Positions 2,263-25,262 of a DNA stretch of 64,000 bases are shown one piece after another. The stretch comes from an uncultured Porphyromonadaceae bacterium (GTDB taxonomy: Bacteria > Bacteroidota > Bacteroidia > Bacteroidales > Barnesiellaceae_A). The stretch is from NCBI GenBank assembly GCA_937891845.1, contig CALATP010000026.1, positions 26,429-90,428 of the forward strand. Direction: 5' to 3'. Numbering within the stretch: the stretch's first letter is position 1; the number at the start of each line of letters is the position of its first letter. Below the pieces are notes generated by a model, which saw only the letters and a program-made list of their open reading frames with translations, was not told the origin of the DNA and searched no databases. The translations under genes and the position numbers were made by a program.

Positions 2263-2360
2263 TAAACGTCATTGTATAGTGAAAATAGAAAAATAGCCAT
2301 TCCACTGTGCATCTGTTTAAGAGTAAGCCAACGTTGTTAAAGAAGATATATTTAGTCGAA

Positions 2361-3533: not shown

Positions 3534-3544
3534 AAATAAGCAAT

Positions 3545-4642
3545 ATGAATCTTTGCATCATATATAATTTCGCAGCACATTACCGTCAAGGCATCTTTAA
3601 ACTGATGGACAATACATTCGATTGTGTGTGGTATTTTGGGAAAACCAATCAAGACATTAAGAAAATGGATTATTCTATTTTTAAAGGTGCTATAACGGAA
3701 TTAGATACTAAAAGATTTGGCGGTTTAACTTTCCAACAAGGGGTACTATCGTTACTTGGCAAGTATGACCGATTCCTGATGTTGGGCGATTCACGTAGTG
3801 TTAGTACTTGGCTATTCCTCATTTGTTCCAAGTTCATGCCCCGTAAGAAAGTTTATTTGTGGAGTCACGGTTTTTATGGGAAGGAATCGTGGTTAGAAGA
3901 TCTGGTGAAAAAAGCGATATTTAAACTTGCCGATGGCATTTTCTTATATAACAACTATGCCCGAGATATGATGTTGAAAAAAGGTTTCAATGTCTCAAAA
4001 CTTTTTGTTATTCATAATTCCCTCAATTATGATGAACAATTAAGTATTAGAAAAAACATTATACCGTCAAATATCTATCGTGAGCATTTCAGAAACAATA
4101 ATCCCATTCTTATTTTTATAGGTCGTCTTACCAAAGTGAAAAAATTGGATTTGTTACTTGATGCTGTAAAGCTATTGAGTAAACAAGGTAAGAACTATAA
4201 TGTTGTTTTTGTGGGTGACGGAGTCGAGCGACAATCATTAGAAAAGAAAACCAAAGAATTAGCTCTGGAAAATAGTGTGTGGTTCTATGGAGCTTGTTAC
4301 GATGAAAAAACCAATGCCGAACTGATATACAATGCAGACCTTTGTGTAGCTCCCGGAAACGTGGGACTTACGGCTATGCACACGATGGTGTTTGGTACCC
4401 CAGTGTTGACACACAATGACTTTAAATGGCAGATGCCCGAATTTGAGGCTATTATCCCTAACAAAACAGGTGATTTCTTTCTGCGCGACAATGTTGATGA
4501 CCTTGCTGCGAAAATTAAATATTGGTTTGATGTAGTTGGTAGCGACAGAGATGCTGTTAGAAAAGCTTGTTTTGATGAAATAGATACTTCTTGGAATCCA
4601 CAGTTCCAATTAGAGGTTTTAATGAACGGTATGCATTTATAA
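3545..4642 (+). CDS. glycosyltransferase (GT4-like)
   Basis: 365-aa ORF with a GT-B C-terminal half (FIGRLTKVKKLDLLLDA, GLTAMHTMVFGTPVLT). Tightly packed within the operon. Confidence 0.7.
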   Translation: MNLCIIYNFAAHYRQGIFKLMDNTFDCVWYFGKTNQDIKKMDYSIFKGAITELDTKRFGGLTFQQGVLSLLGKYDRFLMLGDSRSVSTWLFLICSKFMPRKKVYLWSHGFYGKESWLEDLVKKAIFKLADGIFLYNNYARDMMLKKGFNVSKLFVIHNSLNYDEQLSIRKNIIPSNIYREHFRNNNPILIFIGRLTKVKKLDLLLDAVKLLSKQGKNYNVVFVGDGVERQSLEKKTKELALENSVWFYGACYDEKTNAELIYNADLCVAPGNVGLTAMHTMVFGTPVLTHNDFKWQMPEFEAIIPNKTGDFFLRDNVDDLAAKIKYWFDVVGSDRDAVRKACFDEIDTSWNPQFQLEVLMNGMHL

Positions 4643-4651
4643 TATTACACG

Positions 4652-5302
4652 ATGAATCATTTTATTAAAGGTTGGTTTAAAAATTTGCGAAATAAAAAAA
4701 TATCAAACATCGCTTTTATATCTTCTACGAATATTTTAAGTTCCAAGGCTCGTATATGTCGTTGGGTAAAGATTAAGCATTCGCAAGTAGGTGATTATTC
4801 TTATATAGGACCAAGTTGTGATATTACACATACAACAATTGGGCGTTTCTGTTCAATTGCCGATAATTGTCGTATATGTACACCATCTCATACATTGAGT
4901 CTAATTTCTTCATCCCCAATTTTTACGTTACGCAATAATGGGACTGGTACGACGTGGGTTGCTAATAACGTAGGGCATAAAGAGATGCAACCGGTATGTA
5001 TAGGTAATGATGTTTGGATAGGCTCTCGTGTTATTATAAAAGATGGAATTACCATTGGCGATGGTGCGGTTATTGGTGCAGGTGCTGTAGTTACGAAAGA
5101 TGTACCACCTTATGCTATTGTAGGTGGAGTGCCTGCTAAGGTAATAAAATATCGTTTTGAGCATTCAATCATTGATAAACTTCTTGAAATAAAATGGTGG
5201 AGTGCCGATGATCAGAAATTAAGAAATAATATAAAATTCTTTCAAACCGAGAATATTACAATGGATAATCTGAAAAAATTAGAAAATATAATAAATACCT
5301 AA
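4652..5302 (+). CDS. hexapeptide-repeat sugar O-acetyltransferase (CatB/Vat-like)
   Basis: Left-handed beta-helix repeats ([49 protein letters not shown]). Confidence 0.8.
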
Positions 5303-5308
5303 CATATA

Positions 5309-6355
5309 ATGTCCATATTCAAAGACAAAGTCCTGTTAATTACAGGCGGTACAGGTAGTTTTGGAAACGCCGTACTCAATCGCTTTTTGCGTACAGATAT
5401 TAAAGAAATCAGAGTATTCTCACGCGATGAGAAAAAACAAGACGATATGCGTCACGATTTTCAGGCCCGTATGCCTGAGGTGGCTCATAAAATCAAATTT
5501 TTTATCGGTGACGTGCGCGACTTACAGTCTTGTCGCAATGCAATGCCGGGAGTCGATTATATCTTCCACGCAGCAGCACTCAAGCAAGTACCCTCTTGCG
5601 AGTTCTTCCCTATGGAGGCCGTGAAGACCAATGTGATAGGTACCGACAACATCCTTACCGCGGCTATCGAGCATAAGGTAAAATCAGTTATCTGCCTCTC
5701 TACCGACAAGGCTGCCTATCCCATCAATGCTATGGGTATTACCAAGGCTATTGAAGAAAAGATTGCTGTTGCTAAGTCTCGATATTCGGGTGATACAAAA
5801 ATATGTTGCACACGCTATGGCAATGTGATGTGTTCGCGTGGCTCGGTTATTCCTTTGTGGATTGATCAAATCCGCAATGGTAACCCCATCACACTGACCG
5901 AGCCCTCAATGACACGTTTCATTATGTCGCTTGAGGAAGCGGTCGATCTTGTCCTTTTTGCTTTCGAACACGGACAAAATGGCGATATCCTTGTGCAGAA
6001 AGCTCCTGCTTGTACTATTCAAACACAAGCCGAAGCCGTATGCGAACTCTTCGGTGGAAAGAAAGAAGATATCAAGGTAATCGGTATTCGTCACGGTGAA
6101 AAGATGTACGAAACACTTCTTACCAACGAAGAGTGTGCCAAGGCCGAAGATATGGGCGATTTCTATCGTGTACCGGCCGATAATCGAGGTCTCAATTACG
6201 ACAAATTCTTTAAAGAAGGTGAAGCCGAGCGTAATTTACTTACCGAGTTCAACTCCAATAACACTCGTATGCTTACTGTTGAAGAGACCAAAGCCAAGAT
6301 TGCGGCTCTTACTTATATCCAAAATGAACTCTCCGGAGTGGGTAATTTAGTGTAA
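5309..6355 (+). CDS. fnlA: UDP-N-acetylglucosamine 4,6-dehydratase/5-epimerase (FnlA/CapE/WbjB type)
   Basis: N-terminus KVLLITGGTGSFGNAVLNRFL and overall CapE-like sequence. Followed by CapF- and CapG-type genes. Confidence 0.85.
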   Translation: MSIFKDKVLLITGGTGSFGNAVLNRFLRTDIKEIRVFSRDEKKQDDMRHDFQARMPEVAHKIKFFIGDVRDLQSCRNAMPGVDYIFHAAALKQVPSCEFFPMEAVKTNVIGTDNILTAAIEHKVKSVICLSTDKAAYPINAMGITKAIEEKIAVAKSRYSGDTKICCTRYGNVMCSRGSVIPLWIDQIRNGNPITLTEPSMTRFIMSLEEAVDLVLFAFEHGQNGDILVQKAPACTIQTQAEAVCELFGGKKEDIKVIGIRHGEKMYETLLTNEECAKAEDMGDFYRVPADNRGLNYDKFFKEGEAERNLLTEFNSNNTRMLTVEETKAKIAALTYIQNELSGVGNLV

Positions 6356-6359
6356 ATAT

Positions 6360-7562
6360 ATGAAAATTCTCGTTACAGGTGCCCATGGTTTTGTTGGTCG
6401 CAACCTTGTGGCACAACTCAACAATATAAAAGATGGCAAGGCCAAGTTCTATGGAGATATAGTTATCGACGATGTTTTCGAATACGATATTGATTCAACA
6501 CTAGACGAGCTGGATAAATATTGTAGCAAAGCCGATTTCGTATTCAACCTGGCAGGTGTTAATCGTCCGCAGAATCCTGAGGAATTTATGCAAGGCAATT
6601 TTGGCTTTGCATCCACGTTGCTCGACACATTGCGTCGACACAATAACACCTGTCCGGTAATGCTCAGCTCATCTATTCAAGCCACCCTGGCAGGCCGTTT
6701 CGGAACAAGCGAGTATGGCAAGAGCAAGAAAGCCGGAGAGGAACTTTTCTTCGATTATGCCAAGGCTACAGGAGCACGTGTGTTGGTATACCGTTTCCCC
6801 AATTTATTCGGGAAATGGTGCCGTCCTAACTATAACTCGGCTGTCGCCACATTCTGCAACAATATAGCCAATGATCTCCCCATTACAGTCAATGATCCAA
6901 CAACCGAGCTAGAGCTACTTTATATCGACGATCTTGTTGATGAAATGATAGCTACATTGCGTGGTGAAGAACATCATTGCGAGTTTGAGGGAGTAGAAAC
7001 AATCCTTACCTCTCAAGGTAGATATTGTGCAGTACCTGTAACGCATAAAGTAACCTTGGGCGAAATTGTCAATCTGCTTGAAGAATTCCGCGCCCAACCA
7101 CAGTCGCTTACAATCCCCAATATTCCGGATGGCTCCTTTGCCAAGAAACTATATTCAACCTATCTTTCATATTTGCCCAAGGAAAAAGTGGCATTCCCAT
7201 TGAAGATGAACATTGATGACCGTGGCAGTTTCACCGAGTTATTACGTACTCGCAACAACGGTCAAGTGAGTATCAATATTTCTAAGCCCGGCATTACAAA
7301 AGGGCAGCATTGGCACAATACAAAGTGGGAATTCTTTATGGTTGTAGCAGGGCACGGACTCATACAGATGCGTCGTGTAGATAGTGAAGAAATACTCAAT
7401 TTTGAAGTTTCTGGTGATAAAATTGAGGCTGTTCATATGTTACCCGGATATACTCACAATATCATAAACCTATCCGACACCGATGACCTTGTTACCGTAA
7501 TGTGGTGTAACGAATGTTTCGATCCCAATCGCCCTGATACATATTTCTTACCTGTAGAATAG
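6360..7562 (+). CDS. fnlB: bifunctional reductase/epimerase of the UDP-L-FucNAc pathway (FnlB/CapF type; SDR domain plus C-terminal cupin)
   Basis: MKILVTGAHGFVGRNL Rossmann N-terminus plus a C-terminal cupin-like region (GITKGQHWHNTKWEFFMVVAG). Located between the fnlA-like and fnlC-like genes. Confidence 0.8.
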   Translation: MKILVTGAHGFVGRNLVAQLNNIKDGKAKFYGDIVIDDVFEYDIDSTLDELDKYCSKADFVFNLAGVNRPQNPEEFMQGNFGFASTLLDTLRRHNNTCPVMLSSSIQATLAGRFGTSEYGKSKKAGEELFFDYAKATGARVLVYRFPNLFGKWCRPNYNSAVATFCNNIANDLPITVNDPTTELELLYIDDLVDEMIATLRGEEHHCEFEGVETILTSQGRYCAVPVTHKVTLGEIVNLLEEFRAQPQSLTIPNIPDGSFAKKLYSTYLSYLPKEKVAFPLKMNIDDRGSFTELLRTRNNGQVSINISKPGITKGQHWHNTKWEFFMVVAGHGLIQMRRVDSEEILNFEVSGDKIEAVHMLPGYTHNIINLSDTDDLVTVMWCNECFDPNRPDTYFLPVE

Positions 7563-7574
7563 AACTAATAATAT

Positions 7575-8756
7575 ATGGAACTAAAACTCGACTACTCAAC
7601 CGTAAATTTCAAAAACGACGGTCGTCTCAAGCTCCTTATTATAGTAGGAACTCGACCCGAAATTATACGTCTTGCGGCAGTAATAAATAAGTGTCGCAAA
7701 TACTTCGATACAATATTAGCTCACACCGGGCAAAACTATGATTACAATCTCAATGGTATCTTCTTCCGAGACTTAAAACTCGAAACTCCTGAAGTATATA
7801 TGGATGCCGTCGGTGATGACCTCGGTGCTACTATGGGCAACATTATCAATGCATCATACAAGTTAATGGTGCAATGTAAACCCGATGCAGTTCTCGTATT
7901 AGGCGACACAAATAGTTGCCTATCTGTTATCGGTGCCAAGCGCCTTCACATCCCCATCTTCCATATGGAAGCAGGTAACCGTTGTTTCGACGAATGCCTC
8001 CCCGAAGAAACCAATCGTCGCATAGTTGATATAATCTCAGACGTCAACCTATGTTACTCCGAGCACGCACGACGTTATCTCAATGCATCGGGAGTGGCCA
8101 AAGAACGTACTTATGTAACAGGCTCGCCTATGGCCGAGGTACTACACGAAAACCTTGCCGACATCGAAGCAAGCGATATACACGCTCGTTTAGGACTTGA
8201 GAAAGGTCGTTACATACTCCTTTCTGCACACCGCGAAGAGAATATCGACACCGAGCGTAACTTCACAAGCCTCTTTACAGCTATCAACCGTATGGCCGAG
8301 AAGTACGATATGCCCATACTCTACTCGTGCCACCCTCGCAGTCGCAACCGTCTTGCTGCAAGCGGTTTCAAGCTCGACCCTCGTGTTATCCAACACGAGC
8401 CTCTTGGTTTTCACGACTACAATTGTTTGCAGATGAATGCCTTTGCAGTAGTGAGCGATAGCGGAACTCTTCCCGAAGAAAGCTCATTCTTTACATCAGT
8501 CGGACATTCATTCCCCGCAGTGTGCATACGCACCAGCACCGAACGCCCCGAAGCACTTGACAAAGGATGTTTCATCCTTGCCGGTATTGACGAGCACTCG
8601 TTACTTCAAGCGGTAGATACCGCCGTAGAGATGGTACGTAACAATGATAACGGTATACCCGTACCCAACTATACCGATGAAAACGTATCAACCAAAGTTG
8701 TCAAACTCATCCAATCCTACACCGGAGTAGTAAACAAAATGGTGTGGAGAAAATAA
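7575..8756 (+). CDS. fnlC: UDP-N-acetylglucosamine 2-epimerase, non-hydrolysing (FnlC/CapG type)
   Basis: IVGTRPEIIRLA, LGDTNS and HMEAGNRCFD motifs of the Epimerase_2 family. Confidence 0.85.
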   Translation: MELKLDYSTVNFKNDGRLKLLIIVGTRPEIIRLAAVINKCRKYFDTILAHTGQNYDYNLNGIFFRDLKLETPEVYMDAVGDDLGATMGNIINASYKLMVQCKPDAVLVLGDTNSCLSVIGAKRLHIPIFHMEAGNRCFDECLPEETNRRIVDIISDVNLCYSEHARRYLNASGVAKERTYVTGSPMAEVLHENLADIEASDIHARLGLEKGRYILLSAHREENIDTERNFTSLFTAINRMAEKYDMPILYSCHPRSRNRLAASGFKLDPRVIQHEPLGFHDYNCLQMNAFAVVSDSGTLPEESSFFTSVGHSFPAVCIRTSTERPEALDKGCFILAGIDEHSLLQAVDTAVEMVRNNDNGIPVPNYTDENVSTKVVKLIQSYTGVVNKMVWRK

Positions 8757-8766
8757 GAGATAAGAA

Positions 8767-9987
8767 ATGAATGTGCTGTTTTTGACAATGTCGCCCGGTA
8801 TGGCCAATATCGAGACTAGTGGTATTTATACCGATTTGATGCGCAAATTTCGAGACGAAGGACACATCTTGTATATTGTATACCCCAACGAAAGGCGATT
8901 GGGTATACCAACGCAAGTACGCACGCAAGGGAGTGTACATATATTAGGTGTAAAAACCTTAAACGTTACCAAAACCAATGTTATCGAAAAGGGCATAGGA
9001 CAATTGTCGTTAGAAGTATTATTTATGAATGCGCTGAAAAAATATTTTGGTGATGTAAAATTTGATATAATACTCTACTCAACGCCCCCTATAACCTTTA
9101 CGAAGGTAATACAATATGCAAAGAAACAAAATCCTCTAGCAATGACCTATCTATTGCTTAAGGACATATTCCCTCAGAATGCTGTAGATGTAGGAATGAT
9201 GACCAAGACGGGTATAAAAGGATTGTTGTATAAATTTTTCCGTGCTAAAGAAGAAAAGTTATACAAAATTTCCGATTACATAGGTTGTATGAGCCCGGCC
9301 AATGTGCAATATGTATTAAAGCACAACCCCTATGTAAATCCTGCAATAGTAGAAGTCGCACCTAATAGCTATAATATTCCTAGTGTTAAAATAGAAAAAA
9401 CGGTGTCGGATGCAGCTGAAATAAGAGCAAAATACAATTTACCGGTGGACAAACCCATATTTTTGTATGGAGGTAATATGGGCCGACCTCAAGGTATACC
9501 ATTCCTTATTGAATGTATGAAAGCTGTAAAAGATCGCACCGACTGCCATTTTCTTATCGTTGGTGACGGTACCGAATATCATAAAATAGAGGCATTCATA
9601 AAAGAATATGCGCCCAAGGCTGTGTCGCTTTTCAAGAGTTTGCCCAAAGCCGATTATGATATGTTGGCAAGTGTATGCGATGTAGGACTTATTTTTCTAG
9701 ATTATAGATTTACAATACCTAACTATCCAAGCCGGTTGTTGCCATACTTAATGGAGAAAAAACCTATAATCGCTGTTACCGATCCCAATTGTGATACAGG
9801 AACAATAGCCGAAAAAAATGGATATGGATTCTATTGCCCGAGCAATTCGGTAGGAGCTTTTGTCGATGTTATTGATAAGATGCTTCAATCTGATATTTGC
9901 ACTATGGGAGAGAACGGATACCAATTCTATCTCGATAACTATACCACCAATCATACATATAATACAATAATGAAGCATTTAAATTAA
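8767..9987 (+). CDS. glycosyltransferase family 4, WbuB-like (probable L-FucNAc transferase by position)
   Basis: 406-aa GT-B protein immediately after the fnlABC-type genes, which is the usual WbuB position. Confidence 0.7.
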   Translation: MNVLFLTMSPGMANIETSGIYTDLMRKFRDEGHILYIVYPNERRLGIPTQVRTQGSVHILGVKTLNVTKTNVIEKGIGQLSLEVLFMNALKKYFGDVKFDIILYSTPPITFTKVIQYAKKQNPLAMTYLLLKDIFPQNAVDVGMMTKTGIKGLLYKFFRAKEEKLYKISDYIGCMSPANVQYVLKHNPYVNPAIVEVAPNSYNIPSVKIEKTVSDAAEIRAKYNLPVDKPIFLYGGNMGRPQGIPFLIECMKAVKDRTDCHFLIVGDGTEYHKIEAFIKEYAPKAVSLFKSLPKADYDMLASVCDVGLIFLDYRFTIPNYPSRLLPYLMEKKPIIAVTDPNCDTGTIAEKNGYGFYCPSNSVGAFVDVIDKMLQSDICTMGENGYQFYLDNYTTNHTYNTIMKHLN

Positions 9988-9994
9988 GAACATT

Positions 9995-10627
9995 ATGTAC
10001 AAACATTTTTTTAAACGCTTTTTTGATTTCTGGATAGCTCTGATTGCTTTATTAATCATTTGGCCTATCCTACTGTTAATTACCATTTGGTTGCACTTTG
10101 CCAATAAAGGAGCTGGCGCGTTTTTTGTTCAAGAGCGTCCCGGTAAAGATGGTAAAATATTCAAGCTATTAAAGTTCAAATCTATGACTGATGAACGTGA
10201 TGCCGATGGAAATCTGTTGCCCGATGCGCAGCGTATAACAAAAATTGGTATATTTGTACGTTCAACATCCATAGACGAACTACCGCAACTGCTCAACGTA
10301 CTTAAAGGTGATATGTCTTTCATTGGCCCAAGACCTTTACTTCCTGAATATTTACCATTATATTCACCCGAGCAAGCTCGTCGTCATGAAGTGCGTCCTG
10401 GCATAACCGGTTGGGCACAAGTTAATGGTCGTAATTTTTTGCCATTTAGTAAAAGATTTGAATTGGATGTGTGGTATGTTGATAATTTAAATTGTCTAAT
10501 AGATTTAAAAATAATCCTATTGTCAATTAAGAATGTTTTTTTGAAAAAAGATGTTGCAAATGTAAGTGTAGAAAAAACTAATTCTGACGATTTGGGTTTT
10601 GTTAAATATATAAATAAAAAGAAATGA
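9995..10627 (+). CDS. undecaprenyl-phosphate sugar-phosphate transferase (small PglC/WcfS-type initiating transferase)
   Basis: 210 aa with one N-terminal membrane helix. Carries the Bac_transf motifs KFKSM, DELPQLLNVLKGDMSFIGPRP and RPGITGWAQVNGR. Confidence 0.85.
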   Translation: MYKHFFKRFFDFWIALIALLIIWPILLLITIWLHFANKGAGAFFVQERPGKDGKIFKLLKFKSMTDERDADGNLLPDAQRITKIGIFVRSTSIDELPQLLNVLKGDMSFIGPRPLLPEYLPLYSPEQARRHEVRPGITGWAQVNGRNFLPFSKRFELDVWYVDNLNCLIDLKIILLSIKNVFLKKDVANVSVEKTNSDDLGFVKYINKKK

Positions 10628-11256
10628 AGCATTTAATTATTATTGGAGCCGGTGGCATGGGTCGTTCTATTTGTTCTATTGCTAAAGGTTGTATTGGTTA
10701 TGATATAGACTTCTCTTTGAAAGGATTTATTGATGACGATTCATTAGCGTTAGAAGATTTTGAAAATTATCCGCCTTATTTAGGAAGTATTAAAGACTAT
10801 GTAATTCAGCCTAATGACGTATTTATTTGTTCAATTGGTAATACTCATACAAAACGTACTGTGTGTGAATACTTAAAAACAAAAGGTGCAAAATTTTATA
10901 CTCTCATTCATAAACTTGCTGTTATAAGGCAAAATGCCAAAATAGGAGAAGGTTCTTTAGTTGCAGAATATGCTTCTGTTGGTGTTGATGCCATTGTTGG
11001 AGAAAACTCATTGGTACAATCTTTTGCAACAGTAGCTCACGATTGTCGAATTGGCGACTATGTGCGAATAGATACGCATTGTACTTGTGTGGGAGGTGTA
11101 ATTGTAGAAGATAATGCAATGATTCATACCGGTGCAATCATTAGTCACAATGTTGTTGTTGGTAAAGATGCTCATGTCGGAGCTGGAAGTTTTGTAATAA
11201 AGAAAGTAAAAGCGGGAACAACTGTTTTTGGTAGCCCTGCTAGATATTTAAAATAA
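10624..11256 (+). CDS. NeuD/PglD-family amino-sugar N-acyltransferase (hexapeptide)
   Basis: LIIIGAGGMGRS Rossmann-like N-domain plus a left-handed beta-helix C-domain. 4-nt overlap with the upstream transferase. Confidence 0.8.
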   Translation: MKHLIIIGAGGMGRSICSIAKGCIGYDIDFSLKGFIDDDSLALEDFENYPPYLGSIKDYVIQPNDVFICSIGNTHTKRTVCEYLKTKGAKFYTLIHKLAVIRQNAKIGEGSLVAEYASVGVDAIVGENSLVQSFATVAHDCRIGDYVRIDTHCTCVGGVIVEDNAMIHTGAIISHNVVVGKDAHVGAGSFVIKKVKAGTTVFGSPARYLK

Positions 11257-11263
11257 AATTAAT

Positions 11264-12199
11264 ATGAAGGCTTTTATATTTCCTGGACAAGGTTGCCAGA
11301 AACAAGGAATGGGAAAAGAATTATATGATAATTTCCCGTTAGCAAAAGAATTGTTTGAGCAGGCAAATGAATACTTCGGTAGAAGAATTTCGGATGTGAT
11401 GTTTTATGGTGATGAAAATGAATTAATGGAAACTATAAACACGCAACCTGCAGTGTTTTTATACGAGGTTATTTTGGCTTCTGTTCAGAAAGAAGTTAAT
11501 CCGGATGTCGTTGCTGGGCATTCTTTAGGAGAGTTTGCTGCTTTGGTTGTTAGTGGTGCTATTAATTTTGAGGATGGACTAAATCTTGTTCTTAACCGCG
11601 CAGTGATAGGACAAAAAGCCTGTGAAAAGCATAAAACAAGTATGGGTGCTGTCATTGGGCTGTCAGATGAATATGTTGCTCGCAGAATAAAAGAAATTTG
11701 GGATGAAACTGGTGAGCCAATTTATTTCGCAAATTATAATGGTCCAGGTCAAGTTGTAATATCCGGATCTAAAAAAGGAGTTAGATTAGCTTGTAAAGCT
11801 TTTATGAAAGAAGGTGCAAAGAAGGCTGTCCCTCTATTAATTGGTGGTAGTTTTCATACACCTTATATGAATGAAGCTCGCGAGGAATTAGGTGTTATTA
11901 TTAAAAATACTGAGTTTAAAACACCTCGTATCCCAATTTATCAATGTGTAGATGCAAAACCTCATACCAATCCTGAGAAAATTAAAGAAAATTTGATACA
12001 ACATATTACCCATCCTGTTTTGTGGACAGATATGACACTTAATATGCAAAGGGATGGAGTAAATGAATTTTATGAAGTTGGTACAGATGATACTTTGCAA
12101 AAGATAGTAGCTCGTATGTGTCCAGAAAAAATAGTAACTTCAATATGGAATATTCCAACCTATAATAATATTAATCCATTAAAAAACAATTCGCTATGA
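11264..12199 (+). CDS. ACP S-malonyltransferase (FabD-like)
   Basis: FPGQGCQKQGMG N-terminus and the GHSLGEFAAL active-site motif. Confidence 0.85.
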   Translation: MKAFIFPGQGCQKQGMGKELYDNFPLAKELFEQANEYFGRRISDVMFYGDENELMETINTQPAVFLYEVILASVQKEVNPDVVAGHSLGEFAALVVSGAINFEDGLNLVLNRAVIGQKACEKHKTSMGAVIGLSDEYVARRIKEIWDETGEPIYFANYNGPGQVVISGSKKGVRLACKAFMKEGAKKAVPLLIGGSFHTPYMNEAREELGVIIKNTEFKTPRIPIYQCVDAKPHTNPEKIKENLIQHITHPVLWTDMTLNMQRDGVNEFYEVGTDDTLQKIVARMCPEKIVTSIWNIPTYNNINPLKNNSL

Positions 12200-12423
12200 C
12201 ATTAGATGATTTTGTACAATTGGTGGCGGAACAATTTGATGATACACCGGCAGAGCAATTTACTGCTGACACAAATTTCCGCTCTTTAGAAGAATGGGGT
12301 TCATTAGTTGCTTTATCTATTATTTCAATGGTAGATGAAGAATTTGAAAAACGTGTTACAGGGGCCGAATTAAAATCTTGTGATACTATAGAGCAACTTT
12401 TTCAACTAATAGAATCTAAGTAA
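12196..12423 (+). CDS. acyl carrier protein
   Basis: 75-aa acidic helical protein with a candidate phosphopantetheine serine (EEWGSLVALSII). 4-nt overlap with the fabD-like gene. Confidence 0.7.
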   Translation: MTLDDFVQLVAEQFDDTPAEQFTADTNFRSLEEWGSLVALSIISMVDEEFEKRVTGAELKSCDTIEQLFQLIESK

Positions 12424-12571
12424 ACCAATTTAGTGTGTCAAAATTATAGTTGTATTTAGTCATATGACTCCAATCTATTAATAGCTTTATATATTTTTGT
12501 TAGTAGTAGTAAATAGGATTTCGAAAGACTAAATATATATAATTTTGATACACCTTTTTATTAATATTATT

Positions 12572-13642
12572 ATGGCATATATAAATATTAAAAATGTAAA
12601 AATTCGAGGAATGGCAGCGTGTGTTCCCGAAAGAGTTGAGGAGAATAGAGATTATCCATTATTGTCAAAGGAAGAAATAGAAAAATATATTTCTGCTACA
12701 GGCGTTGAGCGTCGCCATTGTGCTGTCCACGATGGAAGTATTTGTACTTCTGATTTATGTATGAAAGCTGCAGAGAAGCTTATTGAAGAGTTGAAATGGG
12801 ATAAGTCTGAAATTGATTTGCTCATCTTTGTTTCGCATACAACAGATTATAAACTTCCGGCAACTGCAATTGTACTCCAGGATAAAATGGGGTTATCGAA
12901 AAAATGTTTAGCATTTGATATAACGTTAGGATGTTCTGGATATATGGTAGGAATGGGTGTCATTGGCAATATGATGTCTTCGGGTACTTTTAGAAAAGCC
13001 TTACTGATGGTAGGAAATACGCAATCTGAGTATGCCAGTTTTGAAGATAGAAGTATGTATTTGTTGTTAGGTGATGCTGGCACGGTATCTGCGTTAGAAT
13101 ATAATCCTAACGAGTATGATGAAATGGACTTTTGTTATATGAGTGATGGTAACGGTCGTAATTTTGTAATACTTCCAGACGGAGGATCGCGTAATCCTGT
13201 TAATGAAAAGTCTTTTATTATGGAAGATTGTGGAGATGGTATTAGACGCTCTCGTTTGCACGAAAAGATGGAAGGTGTTGAAGTCTTTTCATATGCGATG
13301 TCAAATGTTCCCAAATGCTATAAAGAGCTTTTAGAGAGAACAAATCTTCTACCGGAAAATATAGATTATTACCTATTGCATCAAGCAAACAAATTCCTGT
13401 GTGAAAAATTGCGTAAGAAGTTGAATGCTCCTATAGAGAAAGTTCCATATAATATTTCAGAGTTTGGTAATACAAGTGGTGCTACCATCCCTCTGTTAAT
13501 GGTCACTAACTTGGGTAAAGAAATGGGAACGAAACCATTAGAGTTGGCTATGGCTACAATAGGAGTGGGTTTTTCATTGGCGACGGGTCGTATTAAATTA
13601 TCTCAAGGCGATTTTGTTTGTCCTCCATTATTAACATTATAA
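12572..13642 (+). CDS. 3-oxoacyl-ACP synthase III (FabH-like KAS III)
   Basis: Candidate Cys/His/Asn triad contexts (LGCSGYMVG, LLHQANKF, GNTSGATIP). ATG 12572 preferred over the TTG at 12545. Confidence 0.85.
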   Translation: MAYINIKNVKIRGMAACVPERVEENRDYPLLSKEEIEKYISATGVERRHCAVHDGSICTSDLCMKAAEKLIEELKWDKSEIDLLIFVSHTTDYKLPATAIVLQDKMGLSKKCLAFDITLGCSGYMVGMGVIGNMMSSGTFRKALLMVGNTQSEYASFEDRSMYLLLGDAGTVSALEYNPNEYDEMDFCYMSDGNGRNFVILPDGGSRNPVNEKSFIMEDCGDGIRRSRLHEKMEGVEVFSYAMSNVPKCYKELLERTNLLPENIDYYLLHQANKFLCEKLRKKLNAPIEKVPYNISEFGNTSGATIPLLMVTNLGKEMGTKPLELAMATIGVGFSLATGRIKLSQGDFVCPPLLTL

Positions 13643-13653
13643 AATTTAAGAAG

Positions 13654-14397
13654 ATGTATAATCCTTTTTCATTAGAAGGTAAAACAATTTTGGTTACTGG
13701 CGCATCTTCCGGATTAGGGAAAGGTATTGCTATTGATTGTTCTAAAATGGGTGCTAATGTCTATATTACTGCTCGAAATGAGGAACGATTAAAAGAAACA
13801 CTTGCTTTGATGGATGGTGTAGAAAATAGACATATAATTGCTGATATGTCTACTGAAAAAGATATTGATTTAATTGTTGATTCTTTACCAATAGTTGATG
13901 GTGTTGTATTATGTGCTGGAATTATTAAAACGATGCCTGTGAAAAATATTACAGATAGTGCTGTTCAAGAGATATTTGATGTTAATATAATGTCGAATAT
14001 AAAGCTTTTAAGTCGTTTGCTAAAAAAGAAAAAATTATCGAGGGGGGCATCTGTAGTTTTTATTTCATCTGTATCAACGTTTAATGTTAAAGTTGGTAAT
14101 TCTTTATATTCTGGAACGAAAGGAGCTGTTAACTCGTTTGCTAAAGCGATGGCGTTAGAAGTTGCGAAACAAAATATGAGAGTAAATTGTATTCAGCCTG
14201 GTTTTGTACCATCAAAGATATTGGATAATAGTGGTATTGAGTCTGATGATATTTTAAATTGGTATAAAGAGCGCCATCCGCTTGGTTTTGGTACACCATC
14301 AGATATAGCTAATGGTTGTATATATCTTTTGTCTGATGCGTCTCGGTGGGTTACTGGTAGTATATTTACCATTGATGGTGGTTATACTTTGCAATAA
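13654..14397 (+). CDS. SDR-family oxidoreductase (FabG-like 3-oxoacyl reductase)
   Basis: TGASSGLGKG cofactor motif and the YSGTKGAV (YxxxK) catalytic motif. Confidence 0.85.
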   Translation: MYNPFSLEGKTILVTGASSGLGKGIAIDCSKMGANVYITARNEERLKETLALMDGVENRHIIADMSTEKDIDLIVDSLPIVDGVVLCAGIIKTMPVKNITDSAVQEIFDVNIMSNIKLLSRLLKKKKLSRGASVVFISSVSTFNVKVGNSLYSGTKGAVNSFAKAMALEVAKQNMRVNCIQPGFVPSKILDNSGIESDDILNWYKERHPLGFGTPSDIANGCIYLLSDASRWVTGSIFTIDGGYTLQ

Positions 14398-15035
14398 TGA
14401 AAGTTGAAAGAATCATAAATTCACCTCTCCCATCAAATGCATACGTTATTTGGAATGAGAGTAATCGTCAGTGTATCATAATAGACCCAGGAACACCTCA
14501 CCCATATAAAATAATAGATTTATGTGATAAATTTAATTTAAAACCTGAGGCTATTATATTGACTCATTTTCATTTTGATCATGTTTGGGGGGCTAATTGT
14601 TTAAGAGAAAAATATGACTGCTCAATAATTTGTTCTCAAAGGTGTGCAGAAAAACTAATGATACCACAAAACTATTTTAATTTATTATATTTTAATGATG
14701 AATCTATGTTTTCCATTGAGAATATAGATGTAATTATAAATGATAATATTGAGATGGATATTGCCGGTATTATGCTTAAATTTCTTATGACACCAGGACA
14801 TACAGATTGTTCATTATGCATTTGTATTGATAATATGATTTTTACAGGAGATACTATTATGAATGGTTATAAGCCTATAATAAAGGCTAAACATGGTGGT
14901 AGTAAAGAAGACTTTAGTAATACTTTGAAAGAATTTTTTATGAGCCAAGATTTAAATAGTATAATATACCCGGGACATGATGATTGTTTTGTATTGTCTG
15001 AAGTGAAAAGTTTTTATGAAATATATATAAAATAA
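14397..15035 (+). CDS. MBL-fold metallo-hydrolase
   Basis: HFHFDHVWG (HxHxDH) plus downstream TPGHT and GHDD. Start overlaps the stop of the SDR gene. Confidence 0.8.
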   Translation: MKVERIINSPLPSNAYVIWNESNRQCIIIDPGTPHPYKIIDLCDKFNLKPEAIILTHFHFDHVWGANCLREKYDCSIICSQRCAEKLMIPQNYFNLLYFNDESMFSIENIDVIINDNIEMDIAGIMLKFLMTPGHTDCSLCICIDNMIFTGDTIMNGYKPIIKAKHGGSKEDFSNTLKEFFMSQDLNSIIYPGHDDCFVLSEVKSFYEIYIK

Positions 15036-15041
15036 AGCTTT

Positions 15042-16286
15042 ATGCAAAATCGCATCTATCTCTGCCTTGCGCATATGAGTGGCAATGAGCAGAAGTTTAT
15101 ACAAGAGGCCTTTGATACCAATTGGGTTGTGCCTCTAGGTCCTAATGTTAATGGTTTTGAGGCCGATCTTGAGGCCTTTGTCGGTCAAGACAAGAAGGTT
15201 GTTGCTCTTTCGGCCGGTACAGCGGCTGTGCATCTTGCGCTTATTGCGTGCGGGGTAGGACAGGGCGATGAGGTTATATGTCAGTCATTTACCTTCTGTG
15301 CTTCGGCCAATCCTATTACCTATCTCGGTGCAACTCCGGTTTTTGTCGATTCCGAGCGTGACACCTGGAACATCGATCCCGTTTTGCTCGAAGAGGCTAT
15401 TGTAGACCGCATCGCCAAGACAGGACGTAAGCCCAAAGCCATCATACCCGTCTATCTTTACGGTATGCCCGCCAAGATTGATGAGATTATGGCCATAGCC
15501 AACAAGTACGACATTCCTGTCATTGAGGATGCCGCCGAAGGCTTTGGTTCGCGCTACAAAGGACAAGTTTGTGGCACATTTGGTAAGTATGGCATCTTAT
15601 CGTTCAATGGCAACAAGATGATTACCACATCAGGTGGTGGAGCAATGATATGTCCCGACGATGCTGCCAAACGCGAAATTATGTTCTTTGCCACACAAGC
15701 TCGCGAGGCATATCCCTACTATCAGCACGAGCACATTGGGTACAATTATCGTATGAGTAACATTTGTGCCGGTATTGGTCGCGGACAGATGACTGTGGCC
15801 GACGAACACATCGAGCATCATCGTCACGTATGTAATCTATACAAGGAGTTGCTGGCCGATGTCGAGGGCATCACACTACACGAAAATCCGTCACCCGACT
15901 TCGATAGTAACTATTGGCTCAACACCATTTTGTTGCATCCTGCATTGCGTGTCAAAGGTCAGGAAAATGCATATAAGGCTGCTATACAAGGTGCAGTAGG
16001 TGGAGCTGCCGGTGTCACACACGAAGCATCTTCGCTACACACCGATTGCGAACCCAATGCCAACGTTGAGGCTATGCGTATTGCTCTCGATGCAGCCGGT
16101 ATCGAGGCACGCCCTTTATGGAAACCAATGCACCGTCAACCGGTTTTTGCCACTGCACCGGCCTATGTGAATGGTGTGAGCGAAGACCTTTTTGCCCAAG
16201 GTCTCTGTTTGCCCAGTGGCCCCTGCGTTACCGACGACGATGTTCGTTACGTCGTAGAGCAAATCAAGGCAAATATCGTTCGATAA
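15042..16286 (+). CDS. DegT/DnrJ/EryC1/StrS-family PLP-dependent sugar aminotransferase
   Basis: N-terminal MSGNEQKFIQEAFDTNWV and FNGNKMITTSGGG (catalytic Lys). Clearly higher GC than the genes upstream. Confidence 0.85.
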   Translation: MQNRIYLCLAHMSGNEQKFIQEAFDTNWVVPLGPNVNGFEADLEAFVGQDKKVVALSAGTAAVHLALIACGVGQGDEVICQSFTFCASANPITYLGATPVFVDSERDTWNIDPVLLEEAIVDRIAKTGRKPKAIIPVYLYGMPAKIDEIMAIANKYDIPVIEDAAEGFGSRYKGQVCGTFGKYGILSFNGNKMITTSGGGAMICPDDAAKREIMFFATQAREAYPYYQHEHIGYNYRMSNICAGIGRGQMTVADEHIEHHRHVCNLYKELLADVEGITLHENPSPDFDSNYWLNTILLHPALRVKGQENAYKAAIQGAVGGAAGVTHEASSLHTDCEPNANVEAMRIALDAAGIEARPLWKPMHRQPVFATAPAYVNGVSEDLFAQGLCLPSGPCVTDDDVRYVVEQIKANIVR

Positions 16287-16311
16287 GTTTTTATTTCTGA
16301 ATAGTTATTGT

Positions 16312-16348
16312 GAGGCTGAGTCAAAATGATAAATTTTGGCGCAGCCTC
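16312..16348 (+). terminator. hairpin downstream of the polysaccharide operon
   Basis: gaggctgagtcaaaat / attttggcgcagcctc nearly continuous stem (one mismatch, one wobble) with a 5-nt loop. Sits 26 nt after the stop at 16286 and is followed by tcttatt. Confidence 0.5.
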
Positions 16349-16692
16349 TCTTATTATGTAAAAAAATACTTAATACAAAGTTTGGATATTAAGGCCAAAG
16401 AAGTGCAACGTTGCGCCGGTCTGTGTCATAACATCAATAACAACGAAATATTTTGCCAATTGTCATTCACAGCTGTTTTTAATATTACGATAATTCACAA
16501 TCACAATGCTCACTCCCAGCAATACACAATAGTCTAAATATCACAAAGAGTCAGCGCATATCACATTTTATACATCATCCCATTTCTTAATTTAAGTTAC
16601 CGATTGGCCAAAAACTTTTTACTTCGTTTCGTTATCCGCAAAACTCTCTGTATCTTTACACTCGATTTCAGAAAAAGACCTTTTTTATCATT

Positions 16693-17247
16693 ATGACACC
16701 CATATATAACGAAGAGATTGTCATCGAGAAACTGCAAAATCCGCGCACTGCACGTGAGGCTTTCGGACAGGTTGTCGAGCATTATGGCGAGCGCATTTAT
16801 TGGCAGATTCGTAAGATGGTTGTTTCGCACGAAGATGCCGATGACCTCTTACAGAACACCTTCCTCAAAGCCTGGAACAGCATCGAATTCTTTCGCGGCG
16901 AGGCTCGTCTATCTACTTGGCTCTACCGTATTGCTGTCAACGAGACCATCACTTTCCTCAATCGCGAGCGGCAACGCAACAACATATCCATCGATAGCGA
17001 CGACAGTTTTCTGCTCAACAACATCGAGGCCGACGAGTGGTTCGATGGTGACGACTTGCAACTACGCTTGCAACGTGCTATTGCGCTATTGCCTGAGAAA
17101 CAACGACTTGTATTCAATATGCGATACTTCGATGAGATGAAATACGAGCAAATTTCCGAAATTCTTGGCACATCGGTAGGAGCGCTTAAAGCATCATACC
17201 ATCACGCGGCCAAAAAAATTGAAGAATATTTGTTATCTCACGATTAA
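16693..17247 (+). CDS. RNA polymerase ECF-type sigma-70 factor
   Basis: Region 2 (DADDLLQNTFLKAW, STWLYRIAVN) and region 4 (LPEKQRLVFNMRYFDEMKYEQISEILGTSVGALKASYHHA). Confidence 0.9.
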   Translation: MTPIYNEEIVIEKLQNPRTAREAFGQVVEHYGERIYWQIRKMVVSHEDADDLLQNTFLKAWNSIEFFRGEARLSTWLYRIAVNETITFLNRERQRNNISIDSDDSFLLNNIEADEWFDGDDLQLRLQRAIALLPEKQRLVFNMRYFDEMKYEQISEILGTSVGALKASYHHAAKKIEEYLLSHD

Positions 17248-18907: not shown

Positions 18908-19707
18908 AACGATAAAGCTGTTAAGTCAAACGGTATTTGCATCGCGCTACTGCCCAGTACGTGACAGTTCGACGGAAAAATCACAGGAACAACCGTGAGT
19001 ATATAGTTACGCAGTATCGTCGACAGCTCCTTGCGCAACTCTCCATCACCTGCTATATGCACCTCGTCGGCACGTTGATCCAGGCTCAATTGTTTCCACA
19101 CATTCAGCACGTGGTAAGCCACATCATTGGCCGTACGGTAGGCATAGCTGTTGGCCAGCAACAACCCTTCTCGGCTGTAGCATACAACATCTGCACTGCC
19201 ATTATACAAGTGTACATACACTTTGCGCTGATTGCCCATACGACTCTTTCGGTAGAAGTATTCGCACAAAGCCGACAATGGATGCAGTAGAGTAGGGCGG
19301 TCAAAGGTTCTATACACAAAGCGTACCAACTCCTCATTGGCACCCGACAGCATCACAGCTCCCGTATATGGCATTCTGCACTCAACAATGGTCTCATTGC
19401 TTTCGGCATACACACTTTTGTAGTACACACTGTTATCATCGCTGGTGGCCACCTCGCTAGGCACCAGAAGATGATGTTTCGATGGTAAAACCACGTACAC
19501 TCGGCGGAACGATTGCAATAGCACAGCTCGCTCATATACAACCTCCTCGACAGCGCGCGACAGCGAGTCGGTATAGTGCAATGCTATACGTTCGCTCACC
19601 ATCGAGTCATCCTCGGCCGGATGGTAGTACACATAAGTCAACTCATTGTCCGTTATGCGCAACATCAGCACATATTGGCTCGTATCTATTGTTTCACTGC
19701 GTTCCAT
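18895..19707 (-). CDS. DUF3822-family protein
   Basis: 270-aa ORF overlapping the rsmD start by 13 nt. I recall this pairing as common in Bacteroidota, but the family assignment is from memory. Confidence 0.5.
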   Translation of the reverse strand: MERSETIDTSQYVLMLRITDNELTYVYYHPAEDDSMVSERIALHYTDSLSRAVEEVVYERAVLLQSFRRVYVVLPSKHHLLVPSEVATSDDNSVYYKSVYAESNETIVECRMPYTGAVMLSGANEELVRFVYRTFDRPTLLHPLSALCEYFYRKSRMGNQRKVYVHLYNGSADVVCYSREGLLLANSYAYRTANDVAYHVLNVWKQLSLDQRADEVHIAGDGELRKELSTILRNYILTVVPVIFPSNCHVLGSSAMQIPFDLTALSLCEL

Positions 19708-19925
19708 ATTGCAAAGATAATGAAAGGCCGGTGAAGAACAAAATCAACTTACCCCGATTTTTCTCTCATACAACAACACATCGTTTTTCTTTCCCCATAC
19801 GACTTATTCTCATTCCCTGCGCCACCCTTTTTCAATATCCTTACACGCTATTTTTTCCCGACAATCCATTCACAACTCATATCTTTTATCTACTTTTGCA
19901 AGTATATAATATATCCGACGATTTT

Positions 19926-21365
19926 ATGCTCTACGATGCACTGGCAGCACAAGCCATCCGACACTTACCCTATACCCCCAACGAGCAGCAGAGTGAGTTG
20001 CTCACACGACTTTCTCGTTTTGTACTCAATGGTCGTGACACCGAGTTGTTTCTTCTCACAGGCTATGCCGGTACGGGTAAGACCTCTTTGGTTGGCGCAT
20101 TAGTCAAGGCACTCGACGAGCTCAAGTTCAAGACCGTCTTGCTGGCTCCTACCGGCCGGGCTGCTAAGGTTTTCTCGCGCTACGCATCGCATCCGGCATT
20201 CACCATCCATCGCAAGATATATCGCCAACAACGATACTCGCCCGATATGAGCGGATTTCTTGCCGGTAACAACACCCATCGCGACACACTCTTTATCGTC
20301 GATGAGGCATCAATGATAGCCAATACACCCGGCGATGCGGGGCTATATGGTTCGGGGCGACTGCTCGACGACCTCATCGAGTATGTCTATGGCGGTGACA
20401 ATTGCCGATTATTGTTGTTAGGCGACAATGCTCAGTTACCCCCCGTAGGGCAACCATTCAGCCCGGCTCTCTCTCCCGAGCTGCTTCGGGCGCAAGGTAT
20501 GGATGTTACGGCTTTCGAGCTCAATCTTGTTGCTCGACAAGATACCGACAGTGGTATTCTGTTCAATGCCACACGCCTGCGACATATTATGGCGCAATGC
20601 ACCGACGCGGTTATGCCACCACCTCAATTGCGGTTCGATGCTTTCCCCGATGTTATCAACCTCAGTGGCGAATACCTTGTTGAGACCATATCCGACTCTT
20701 ACGACTCGGTAGGACTCGACGACACCATTATTATTACCCGCTCCAACAAGCGAGCCGGTATCTTCAATCAAGGCATCCGCAATCAGATTTTATATCGCGA
20801 GGAGTTGCTGACAGCAGGCGATATGCTGCTTGTTGCCAAGAATAACTATTATTGGGGAAAGGAATATAAAGAAGTCGATTTCATTGCCAATGGCGATATA
20901 GCGCGTGTCGTGCGCGTGCGCAAGACCTATCAGATGTACGGTTTTAACTTTGCCGATGTCCAATTACAATTCCCCGATCTCGATGTCGAACTCGAAGCTC
21001 GCATCCTGATCGACACGCTCACTAGTGATGCACCCGCTCTCTCGCGTGAGCAGAACGAGCAGCTATACACTGCCATCCTTGCCGATTATGCACACATTTC
21101 TACACAACGCGAGAGGTTGCAACGTCTCAAGGCCGACCCTTGGTTCAATGCGTTGCAAGTCAAGTATGCCTATGGTGTAACTTGTCACAAGGCTCAAGGA
21201 GGACAGTGGAAGCACGCCTACATCGATATGGGATATATCGACCCAACGACACTCTCCATCGACTTCTATCGTTGGCTATACACTGCCATTACACGTGCCA
21301 CTGAGCGCGTATATTTCATCAATACAGCCCCTCATTTCATCGAAGGGGCAACAGAAAATGACTAG
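19926..21365 (+). CDS. RecD/TraA-like superfamily-1 DNA helicase (AAA_30 plus UvrD_C_2 type)
   Basis: Walker A LTGYAGTGKTS, Walker B LFIVDEASM, and C-terminal YAYGVTCHKAQGGQW. ATG 19926 was chosen because the longer ORF overlaps the opposite-strand gene. Confidence 0.8.
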   Translation: MLYDALAAQAIRHLPYTPNEQQSELLTRLSRFVLNGRDTELFLLTGYAGTGKTSLVGALVKALDELKFKTVLLAPTGRAAKVFSRYASHPAFTIHRKIYRQQRYSPDMSGFLAGNNTHRDTLFIVDEASMIANTPGDAGLYGSGRLLDDLIEYVYGGDNCRLLLLGDNAQLPPVGQPFSPALSPELLRAQGMDVTAFELNLVARQDTDSGILFNATRLRHIMAQCTDAVMPPPQLRFDAFPDVINLSGEYLVETISDSYDSVGLDDTIIITRSNKRAGIFNQGIRNQILYREELLTAGDMLLVAKNNYYWGKEYKEVDFIANGDIARVVRVRKTYQMYGFNFADVQLQFPDLDVELEARILIDTLTSDAPALSREQNEQLYTAILADYAHISTQRERLQRLKADPWFNALQVKYAYGVTCHKAQGGQWKHAYIDMGYIDPTTLSIDFYRWLYTAITRATERVYFINTAPHFIEGATEND

Positions 21366-24993: not shown

Positions 24994-25025
24994 TATTTAC
25001 ACCGATGATGGGGCGGTTTTTCAAG

Positions 25026-25231: not shown

Positions 25232-25262
25232 TTCCCTAATATTTAATATATTACATTACAAT

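Follow-up and report, generated by a model that had tools for sequence, protein, structure and literature searches.

A fatty acid synthase-like gene cassette with an MBL-fold protein in a Bacteroidales surface-polysaccharide locus: a proposed source of a sugar N-acyl group

Why does a locus for a bacterial surface polysaccharide contain its own acyl carrier protein (ACP) together with further genes of the fatty acid synthesis type? The question is raised by positions 9995-16286 of a 64,000-nucleotide (nt) stretch of contig CALATP010000026.1 (assembly GCA_937891845.1), which originates from an uncultured Porphyromonadaceae bacterium; the whole stretch is called the window in the following. Among the immunodominant features of bacterial surface glycans, amino sugars with an N-hydroxyacyl group are frequent. 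To our knowledge, the origin of the hydroxyacyl donor is rarely known. With a probability of about 0.6 we propose that, in this locus, the N-acyl group of a bacillosamine-type sugar comes from a self-contained module similar to a type II fatty acid synthase (FAS). The supply of an N-acyl group by ACP-based genes within a polysaccharide locus has already been published as a prediction for the fish pathogen Flavobacterium psychrophilum (PMC6519341). New are the variant with FabD and a conserved protein of the metallo-beta-lactamase (MBL) fold, its modularity across different sugar classes and its wide distribution in gut Bacteroidales.

A first-pass annotation of this DNA had described a module of FabD, ACP, ketoacyl-ACP synthase III (KAS III), short-chain dehydrogenase/reductase (SDR) and MBL between PglC/PglD-like genes and a DegT gene. 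Pfam and NCBIfam matches were obtained for all of these genes, at the coordinates given there. The eight closely packed genes on the plus strand are listed below with their length in amino acids (aa); ORF denotes the open reading frame, CoA coenzyme A and PLP pyridoxal phosphate.

9995..10627, +, small PglC-type polyprenyl-phosphate phosphoglycosyl transferase, 210 aa (Pfam Bac_transf, E 1.8e-59)
10624..11256, +, N-acyltransferase of the PglD/NeuD/VioB family with left-handed beta-helix (LbH), 210 aa (PglD_N and Hexapep; TIGR03570 175.7, cut-off 160.8)
11264..12199, +, FabD paralogue, putative dedicated malonyl-CoA:ACP transacylase, 311 aa (Acyl_transf_1; TIGR00128 fabD 286.8, cut-off 260.9)
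12196..12423, +, dedicated ACP, 75 aa (PP-binding, 30 bits, cut-off 20.8)
12572..13642, +, KAS III-type ketosynthase, 356 aa from the probable start ATG 12572; the ORF opens with TTG 12545 (ACP_syn_III and ACP_syn_III_C)
13654..14397, +, FabG-like SDR, putative ketoreductase (KR), 247 aa from the probable start ATG 13654; the ORF opens with TTG 13618 (adh_short_C2, E 1e-45; KR domain)
14397..15035, +, small MBL-fold di-metal hydrolase, glyoxalase-II/YcbL-like, 212 aa (Lactamase_B, E 3.5e-21; motif LTHFHFDH)
15042..16286, +, PglE-like PLP-dependent sugar 4-aminotransferase, 414 aa (DegT_DnrJ_EryC1, E 2e-93)

The FAS-type module is thus located between the PglD-like and the PglE-like gene, with the PglC-like gene upstream. 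Overlaps of 4 nt were found for PglC/PglD and for FabD/ACP and of 1 nt for SDR/MBL, where the MBL start lies on the SDR stop codon. The remaining junctions are 7-12 nt long, with an AT-rich gap of 148 nt before the KAS gene as the sole exception. A scan of positions 9500-17000 for promoters and terminators gave nothing above shuffled controls.

The expected catalytic residues are found in the products of all eight genes. Among the homologues encoded in comparable cassettes, Q9, S87 (in GHSLGE), R112 and H198 of FabD are at least 95 % conserved, and the same level was found for S36 of the ACP, the phosphopantetheine-attachment serine in the motif E-W-x-S-L (24 cassette ACPs compared), for C121, H270 and N300 of the KAS (41 cassette KAS proteins) and for TGxxxGxG, N111, S139 and K156 of the SDR, in which R41 is also conserved. 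The motifs quoted in the first-pass annotation, GHSLGE in FabD, HxHxDH in the MBL and the Cys/His/Asn contexts of the KAS, are all present; the KAS motifs LGCSGY, LLHQAN and FGNTSGA align with the triad of FabH. The 75-aa ACP described there as the module's own agrees with the PP-binding match, and it scores far below the AcpP model. The KAS, the only condensing enzyme of the window cassette, has its best PDB relative in 4efi (215 bits) and remains below the FabH equivalog cut-offs (TIGR00747 168.5 against 292.1; NF006829 208.8 against 249). Judged by these profiles, it is a member of the KAS III superfamily and not a FabH equivalog. All ORFs of 9995-16286 were assigned, and no dehydratase, enoyl reductase (ER) or hot-dog protein was among them.

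The flanking enzymes point to an amino sugar of the bacillosamine type. For the PglC-like protein the best solved relative is PglC of Campylobacter (8g1n/8e37, 220 bits). The best PDB relatives of the PglD-like protein are WeeI (4m9c), VioB (7txp) and PglB-ATD (4m98), PglD being found as well; the context of the catalytic His, VAHDC, is retained and H139-D140 is at least 95 % conserved among the cassette homologues. PglE of C. jejuni is the best PDB relative of the aminotransferase (1o61 with 298 bits, 4ztc with 295 bits).

From these families the following pathway can be proposed. FabD would transfer malonate from malonyl-CoA to the dedicated 75-aa ACP, and the single KAS III would condense malonyl-ACP with an acyl-CoA primer, most simply acetyl-CoA, to acetoacetyl-ACP. 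The SDR would reduce this intermediate to 3-hydroxybutanoyl-ACP. Since neither a dehydratase nor an ER is present, the chain is expected to end as a 3-hydroxy acid. A 4,6-dehydratase and the PglE-like aminotransferase would provide the UDP-4-amino-4,6-dideoxy-HexNAc, and the PglD-like enzyme would N-acylate it with the acyl group borne by the ACP, rather than with an acyl-CoA. The PglC-like enzyme would then start the repeat by placing the sugar-1-phosphate on undecaprenyl phosphate, and the neighbouring glycosyltransferase of family 4 (GT4) would add L-FucNAc. The MBL would most likely be a trans-acting hydrolase for thioesters of the dedicated ACP, which would return dead-end or wrongly acylated forms to holo-ACP. 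With a different fold it would do the job of a type II thioesterase.

The nearest known system is the O-antigen locus of F. psychrophilum (PMC6519341, Cisar et al. 2019). It comprises wfpB (PglC-like), wfpC and wfpE (KAS III, 333 and 350 aa), wfpD (ACP, 76 aa), wfpF (FabG-like) and wfpG (PglD-like), and the authors proposed a type II FAS-like route in which the 3,5-dihydroxyhexanoyl group of D-Qui2NAc4NR is assembled while attached to the ACP, with WfpG as the transferase. The QuiNAc4N-(3,5-dihydroxyhexanoyl) residue of the O-polysaccharide was determined by nuclear magnetic resonance, whereas the pathway itself is a prediction and was not reconstituted (PMC6519341). Clustered PglC-like, KAS III, ACP, FabG-like KR and PglD-like genes are common to wfpB-wfpG and the window. 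The likeness extends to L-FucNAc: the O-polysaccharide contains L-FucNAc and D-Qui2NAc4NR, with a transferase for the 1-3 transfer of alpha-L-FucNAc to D-Qui2NAc4NR in the gene table (PMC6519341), and in the window FnlABC and a GT4 gene stand beside the PglC-like gene. The two systems differ in gene order, the PglD-like gene following the cassette in F. psychrophilum and preceding it in the window. They also differ in the number of condensing enzymes, with two KAS III for a C6 dihydroxy acyl group compared to one KAS in the window. Neither FabD nor an MBL occurs in the published gene list, and the word 'lactamase' is absent from text and supplement (PMC6519341).

Products of the predicted kind, N-(3-hydroxybutanoyl) derivatives of a 4-amino-4,6-dideoxy-HexNAc or of nonulosonic acids, are known from Acinetobacter baumannii as D-QuiNAc4NHb, Leg5Ac7R and Pse5Ac7R. 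There, the N-3-hydroxybutanoyl groups of QuiNAc4N, Leg and Pse were attributed to exchanged acyltransferase genes only (qhbC/qhbB/gdr; lgaH/I, psaG/H; PMC9676051), and the qhb module has no ACP, KAS, KR, FabD or MBL. In our reading, which is absent from PMC9676051, the A. baumannii acyl donor would come from general metabolism. The first-pass annotation had suggested a 3-hydroxyacyl group made in situ for a 4-amino-4,6-dideoxy sugar. The relatives of PglC, PglD and PglE, the set of FabD, ACP, KAS and KR lacking dehydratase and ER and the precedent of F. psychrophilum speak for this suggestion, the best supported of the readings compared; the idea as such, however, had been published before, and the visible locus does not include the 4,6-dehydratase.

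One KAS and one KR would predict a C4 acyl group, 3-hydroxybutanoyl. By analogy, a C4 3-hydroxyacyl group fits the window because F. psychrophilum pairs two KAS III with the C6 dihydroxy group. This rule of one condensation per KAS gene is derived from a single pair of genotype and structure, that of F. psychrophilum, and it is backed by larger cassettes, which gain KAS and KR genes instead of reusing one.

The distribution of the gene set was investigated by scanning GTDB species genomes with the MBL. Among 31 loci, 27 contained a close MBL and four a distant one (L030-L033), and the latter had no cassette. In all 27 close loci the MBL gene is on the same strand as the KAS III and SDR genes and downstream of them. 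FabD-ACP heads the set in 23/27; of the other four, two are cut at the edge and two (L009 and L022) are without FabD. The same cassette was also reached via the KAS (L041-L044), via a distant MBL (L046) and via FabD (Butyricimonas L048-L050, one of them a complete genome). The comparative search that the first-pass annotation had put forward as a check has therefore located the gene set in more than 30 independent polysaccharide loci, so that the juxtaposition is not due to chance. The hosts are mainly Bacteroidales, among them Odoribacter, Prevotella, Muribaculaceae, Barnesiella and Paludibacteraceae, and two contigs of metagenome-assembled genomes (MAGs) are labelled as Clostridia. Odoribacter laneus YIT 12061 (L005) shows full synteny with the window from FnlA to DegT, its FnlABC/GT4 part being 56-85 % identical. 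For FabD, more than 120 protein clusters share 74 % identity or more with the window protein; one of them from Butyricimonas (P0322, 83 % identity; single context examined, 384 blocks of the contig collection) lies in a cassette of a polysaccharide locus.

Gene number and order vary between the cassettes. Besides KAS-SDR, as in the window, we found SDR-KAS, SDR-KAS(350 aa)-KAS(333 aa), larger sets in which a further SDR and KAS are added, and sets with a MaoC-like protein, with FkbH and a second ACP or with an AMP-ligase and an ACP. The number of KAS genes per cassette ranges from one to two or more, and the pair of 350 and 333 aa has the sizes of wfpE and wfpC. An acyltransferase candidate, PglD-like, GNAT (Acetyltransf_3/4/6/9) or FemAB-like, flanks the cassette in most loci examined; the PglD-like gene is found 5-61 nt upstream of FabD in L003, L005, L006, L013, L018, L027, L029 and L043. 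The accompanying sugar genes are PglE-like, FdtA and FdtB-like (3-amino-3,6-dideoxyhexoses) or NeuB (nonulosonic acids). These sugar classes are exactly those known to carry N-hydroxyacyl groups (cf. QuiNAc4NHb, Leg5Ac7R and Pse5Ac7R, PMC9676051). A metagenome scan with the window KAS gave only four loci and showed minimal cassettes without FabD and MBL, namely LbH-ACP-KAS-SDR (L034) and KAS-ACP-KAS-SDR (L035). FabD and MBL tend to occur as a pair or to be missing as a pair, which suggests a joint insulation of the dedicated ACP from the FAS of the host, FabD by loading and the MBL by clearing it. It may be speculated that such an insulation would suit a module that moves among loci and hosts.

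Several cassettes show features of their own. Three loci (L007, L014, L015) encode an FkbH-like protein of 531-575 aa (TIGR01686 262.8, cut-off 146.65) and an ACP-sized protein of 75-78 aa, which has no Pfam match, directly 5' of the MBL. In three others (L008, L025, L026) an ACP (PP-binding), an AMP-ligase and an SDR precede it. By their domains, the cassettes with FkbH or AMP-ligase suggest that Bacteroidales glycans bear unusual N-acyl groups, for instance glyceryl-derived ones. In L041 (9843-12722) and L046 (5110-7994), two KAS/KR pairs enclose a PglD-like LbH gene and a weakly matching MaoC-like hot-dog protein; in L044 (10422-14036) a 599-aa Fer4/FrhB-hexapeptide fusion and an aldo-keto reductase are found instead. 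Rates of evolution are very uneven within the cassette. FabD is 70-83 % identical in 16 of the 23 FabD-bearing loci, even where KAS and MBL reach just 30-40 %, and 46-52 % identical in the other seven; the MBL diverges most of all, even when syntenic loci are compared. The cassettes on Clostridia-binned contigs (L003, a Lachnospiraceae MAG, with 68 % nucleotide identity to the window across PglC-MBL, and L014, Oscillibacter sp.) were either acquired horizontally from Bacteroidales or binned in error. In the metagenome contig L001, positions 1231-3123 correspond to 13929-15821 of the window with 96.7 % nucleotide identity and comprise the 3' half of the SDR, an identical MBL and the first 780 nt (~63 %) of DegT. 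It has cas1-cas2 upstream of the breakpoint and different sugar genes downstream, a mosaic produced either by recombination or by chimeric assembly. In L043 (9812-10444), which carries a KAS named Parabacteroides faecis by NCBI (P0137), the gene caller gave a 142-aa ORF after the SDR, whereas tblastn aligned the whole MBL in one segment (residues 1-210, 38 % identity). A mis-called start or a recent gene disruption may be the cause.

The MBL-fold protein is the least familiar member of the set. Its full set of di-metal ligands, H57xH59xD61H62, H135, D152 and H194, is invariant in 32 homologues, and S13, Y16, W64 and C141 are invariant residues specific for the family. The best PDB matches of a profile built from the homologues are small glyoxalase-II-like proteins (7ev5, 4ysb, 7l0b, 6rz0, 2xf4). 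The AlphaFold model (pLDDT, the predicted local distance difference test, 94.9) has the alpha-beta/beta-alpha MBL fold, and with Foldseek it matched BLEG-1, S. aureus GloB and YcbL (7ev5, 7l0b, 2xf4) with template modelling (TM) scores of 0.80-0.85 at ~21 % identity. It scores far below the equivalog cut-offs of GloB (TIGR03413 66.6 against 200.8) and SolJ (NF041804 60.3 against 350). By these scores it resembles the glyoxalase II family and is no orthologue of GloB. A first impression that the family is rare was dropped; a word-indexed protein search (44 matches) had under-sampled it compared with an exhaustive profile search, which gave 498 clusters at E <= 1e-30. By this measure the subfamily is sizeable, and it is unnamed. 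Domain fusions that could hint at a partner of the MBL were not found in the longer homologues (P0264, P0217, P0260, P0269), which hold MBL domains only.

Glyoxalase II enzymes catalyse thioester hydrolysis. Those named above (YcbL/GloC, S. aureus GloB, BLEG-1) share the seven metal ligands, a similar length and the fold with the window MBL, but their context is methylglyoxal detoxification instead of an ACP module. Comparable too are discrete HxHxDH hydrolases encoded beside discrete or modular ketosynthase and ACP machinery, for which cleavage of ACP thioesters was shown or proposed (ActIV, MrqD, NftF1, fungal MbL-type, SolJ). In type II polyketide synthase (PKS) systems, MBL-fold thioesterases that act on discrete ACPs are ActIV and MrqD, and the same was proposed for NftF1 (cited in PMC10265476); MbL-type enzymes are also known in fungi. 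The window MBL lies outside the SolJ family, is smaller and is YcbL/glyoxalase-II-like, the comparison with ActIV and MrqD being made by description only. Moreover, the PKS pathways end in a released polyketide, while that of the window would end in an amide on a sugar. The type II thioesterases, alpha/beta-hydrolases for editing in PKS and nonribosomal peptide synthetases, have the same proposed job of carrier-protein regeneration; their fold is unrelated, and the analogy is one of function only. ETHE1 (persulfide dioxygenase) relatives among the fold matches were set aside on context alone, as the metal ligands do not separate them. PqsE, the thioesterase partner of PqsD (KAS III-like), came into question as a further analogue, but the top sequence and fold matches do not include it.

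Fold, complete metal site, strict association with the ACP module and the precedents of type II PKS back a thioesterase. The MBL is thus most likely a trans-acting thioesterase which clears or releases ACP thioesters. Even so, its role is the weakest step of the proposed mechanism. According to the first-pass annotation the role of an MBL in such cassettes was uncharacterised, and our literature searches agree with this: nothing specific was found on a FabD-ACP-KAS-KR-MBL cassette in Bacteroidales or in Bacteroides capsule loci.

Some observations weigh against the proposed N-acyl supply. Neither the choice of the primer nor an iterative use of the single KAS is readable from the sequence. Among the window genes no PglF-type 4,6-dehydratase is visible. 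Every solved relative of the PglD family uses acetyl-CoA, and the PglD-like protein of the window has no obvious ACP-docking domain. A PglD-like protein of Butyricimonas that is 57 % identical to it stands away from the cassette, beside PglC; hence, the sequence is no marker of specificity for acyl-ACP, and an attempt to sort PglD homologues using acyl-ACP from those using acetyl-CoA by adjacency and identity did not discriminate between them. The MBL is far more divergent than its neighbours, with 44-47 % compared to 64-80 % identity in L003 and L005. Finally, cassettes without MBL and FabD occur (L034, L035), as in the published list for F. psychrophilum; the MBL is therefore unnecessary for making or transferring the acyl group.

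These points leave room for other explanations, of which an ordinary N-acetylation is one. The PglD-like protein could form N,N'-diacetylbacillosamine (diNAcBac) with acetyl-CoA, like all its solved relatives, and the product of the cassette would be used elsewhere, for O-acylation, another sugar, a lipid or another metabolite. The Butyricimonas gene and a second hexapeptide acyltransferase at 4652-5302 of the window would fit this, but at least eight loci have the PglD-like gene directly next to FabD, the window cassette is flanked by no further N-acyltransferase candidate, and only a single aminotransferase is visible. Furthermore, the cassette is always embedded in amino-sugar genes, and in F. 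psychrophilum the PglD homologue co-varies with it, strains without the wfp cassette genes having different PglD homologues (PMC6519341). We regard N-acetylation by the PglD-like protein as quite unlikely. Housekeeping genes of fatty acid synthesis which lie beside the polysaccharide locus by chance are hardly credible at all. Only FabD, which exceeds the fabD equivalog cut-off, would agree with this; the elongating KAS I/II FabF/FabB as well as FabZ and FabI are lacking in the cassette, KAS and ACP fall below the FabH and AcpP models, and glycan genes surround the set in every locus examined. In addition, the locus is low in G+C and strain-variable, the DegT and PglD proteins being found on one contig each and the flanking genes on up to 13.

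With the module as described, the MBL could still be an obligatory enzyme of product release, which frees the acyl group for a CoA-type PglD-like or GNAT transferase, as free acid or by exchange with CoA, or catalyses its aminolysis onto the amino sugar. The MBL gene is usually the last of the FAS-like set, like a terminal thioesterase, ActIV and MrqD are release enzymes, CoA thioesters are the normal donors of PglD and GNAT relatives, and FabD and MBL are mostly present or absent together. For several reasons, editing is favoured over obligatory release: no acyl-CoA or acyl-AMP ligase is encoded in the window locus, in most loci examined an acyltransferase candidate adjoins the cassette, the core enzymes are evolving more slowly than the MBL, glycan loci have cassettes without MBL, and F. 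psychrophilum, with no MBL in the published list, makes an acylated glycan. Obligatory release is thus unlikely, although it deserves some weight. A similarly small chance is given to an acyl group other than 3-hydroxybutanoyl, e.g. 3,5-dihydroxyhexanoyl or 3-hydroxypentanoyl, formed from a different primer (propionyl-, isobutyryl- or hydroxyacyl-CoA) or by an iterative KAS. The KAS is no FabH equivalog, its clade A in the tree of cassette KAS proteins also includes members of two-KAS cassettes and of the F. psychrophilum-like arrangement of L035, and related cassettes, those with FkbH and a second ACP or with AMP-ligase and ACP, clearly make more elaborate groups. On the other hand, the sole system of known structure pairs two condensations with two KAS genes, and longer variants add KAS and KR genes. 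Doubtful, and more so than these two, is a wider idea: the MBL as a new kind of enzyme that depends on the carrier protein and links the ACP module with sugar N-acyltransferases of the CoA type, for example through thioester exchange or direct aminolysis. Together with FabD it would form a host-independent, portable module for N-acyl decoration, in which the numbers of KAS and KR genes would set the chain length and hydroxylation pattern and which would have spread among capsule loci in gut Bacteroidales.

The genes around the cassette were also assigned by Pfam and NCBIfam. The G+C content is low over positions 1-16286 of the window (0.32-0.39 compared to 0.45-0.49 further on), all genes there are on the plus strand, and the eight-gene set is preceded by the following, in this order.

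58-984, +, arginase equivalog (TIGR01229 244 bits, cut-off 227.6; Pfam Arginase, E 2e-65)
then, +, Wzy-like gene and two GT4 genes
4652-5302, +, second hexapeptide acyltransferase, Vat/CatB-like
5309..9987, +, FnlA/FnlB/FnlC-like genes of the UDP-L-FucNAc pathway and a GT4 gene directly upstream of the PglC-like gene (Polysacc_synt_2, Epimerase and Polysacc_synt_C, Epimerase_2, Glycos_transf_1)

The arginase gene, which opens the low-G+C locus just 5' of the Wzy-like gene, is an odd neighbour for glycan genes. On the 3' side of the eight-gene set an extracytoplasmic function (ECF) sigma factor is followed by ordinary chromosomal genes. The window start cuts into a Wzy-dependent surface-polysaccharide locus, probably a capsular one, of which the region represents the 3' part. 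The first-pass annotation had assigned it to a capsule locus; the surface-polysaccharide genes agree with this, whereas 'capsule' is only likely, since a locus start of the UpxY/UpxZ type would fall outside the window. The missing PglF-type dehydratase may be encoded before the window start or in another part of the genome; an ORF at 19482-21365, considered as a dehydratase of the PglF/WbpM type, was ruled out as it is a helicase. Farther downstream, genes of a P22-like portal protein (23074-24993, +, E 2e-38) and of an AmiA-like amidase (25263-26129, +) lie amid Omp85, aldehyde dehydrogenase and UvrD genes, and the two (23074-26129) may be a prophage remnant.

For the Bacteroidales, the proposed supply of an N-acyl group would mean that many members, cultured Odoribacter and Butyricimonas among them, have an ACP-based module that is portable and insulated. 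If the number of genes predicts the acyl group, a rule from genotype to structure would become available for the prediction of capsules in gut bacteria. The cassette would also be a compact system that can be reconstituted, in which it could be decided whether sugar acyltransferases of the PglD or GNAT type take acyl-ACP. Finally, a large and unstudied MBL subfamily, with its 498 clusters, would gain a defined biochemical context.

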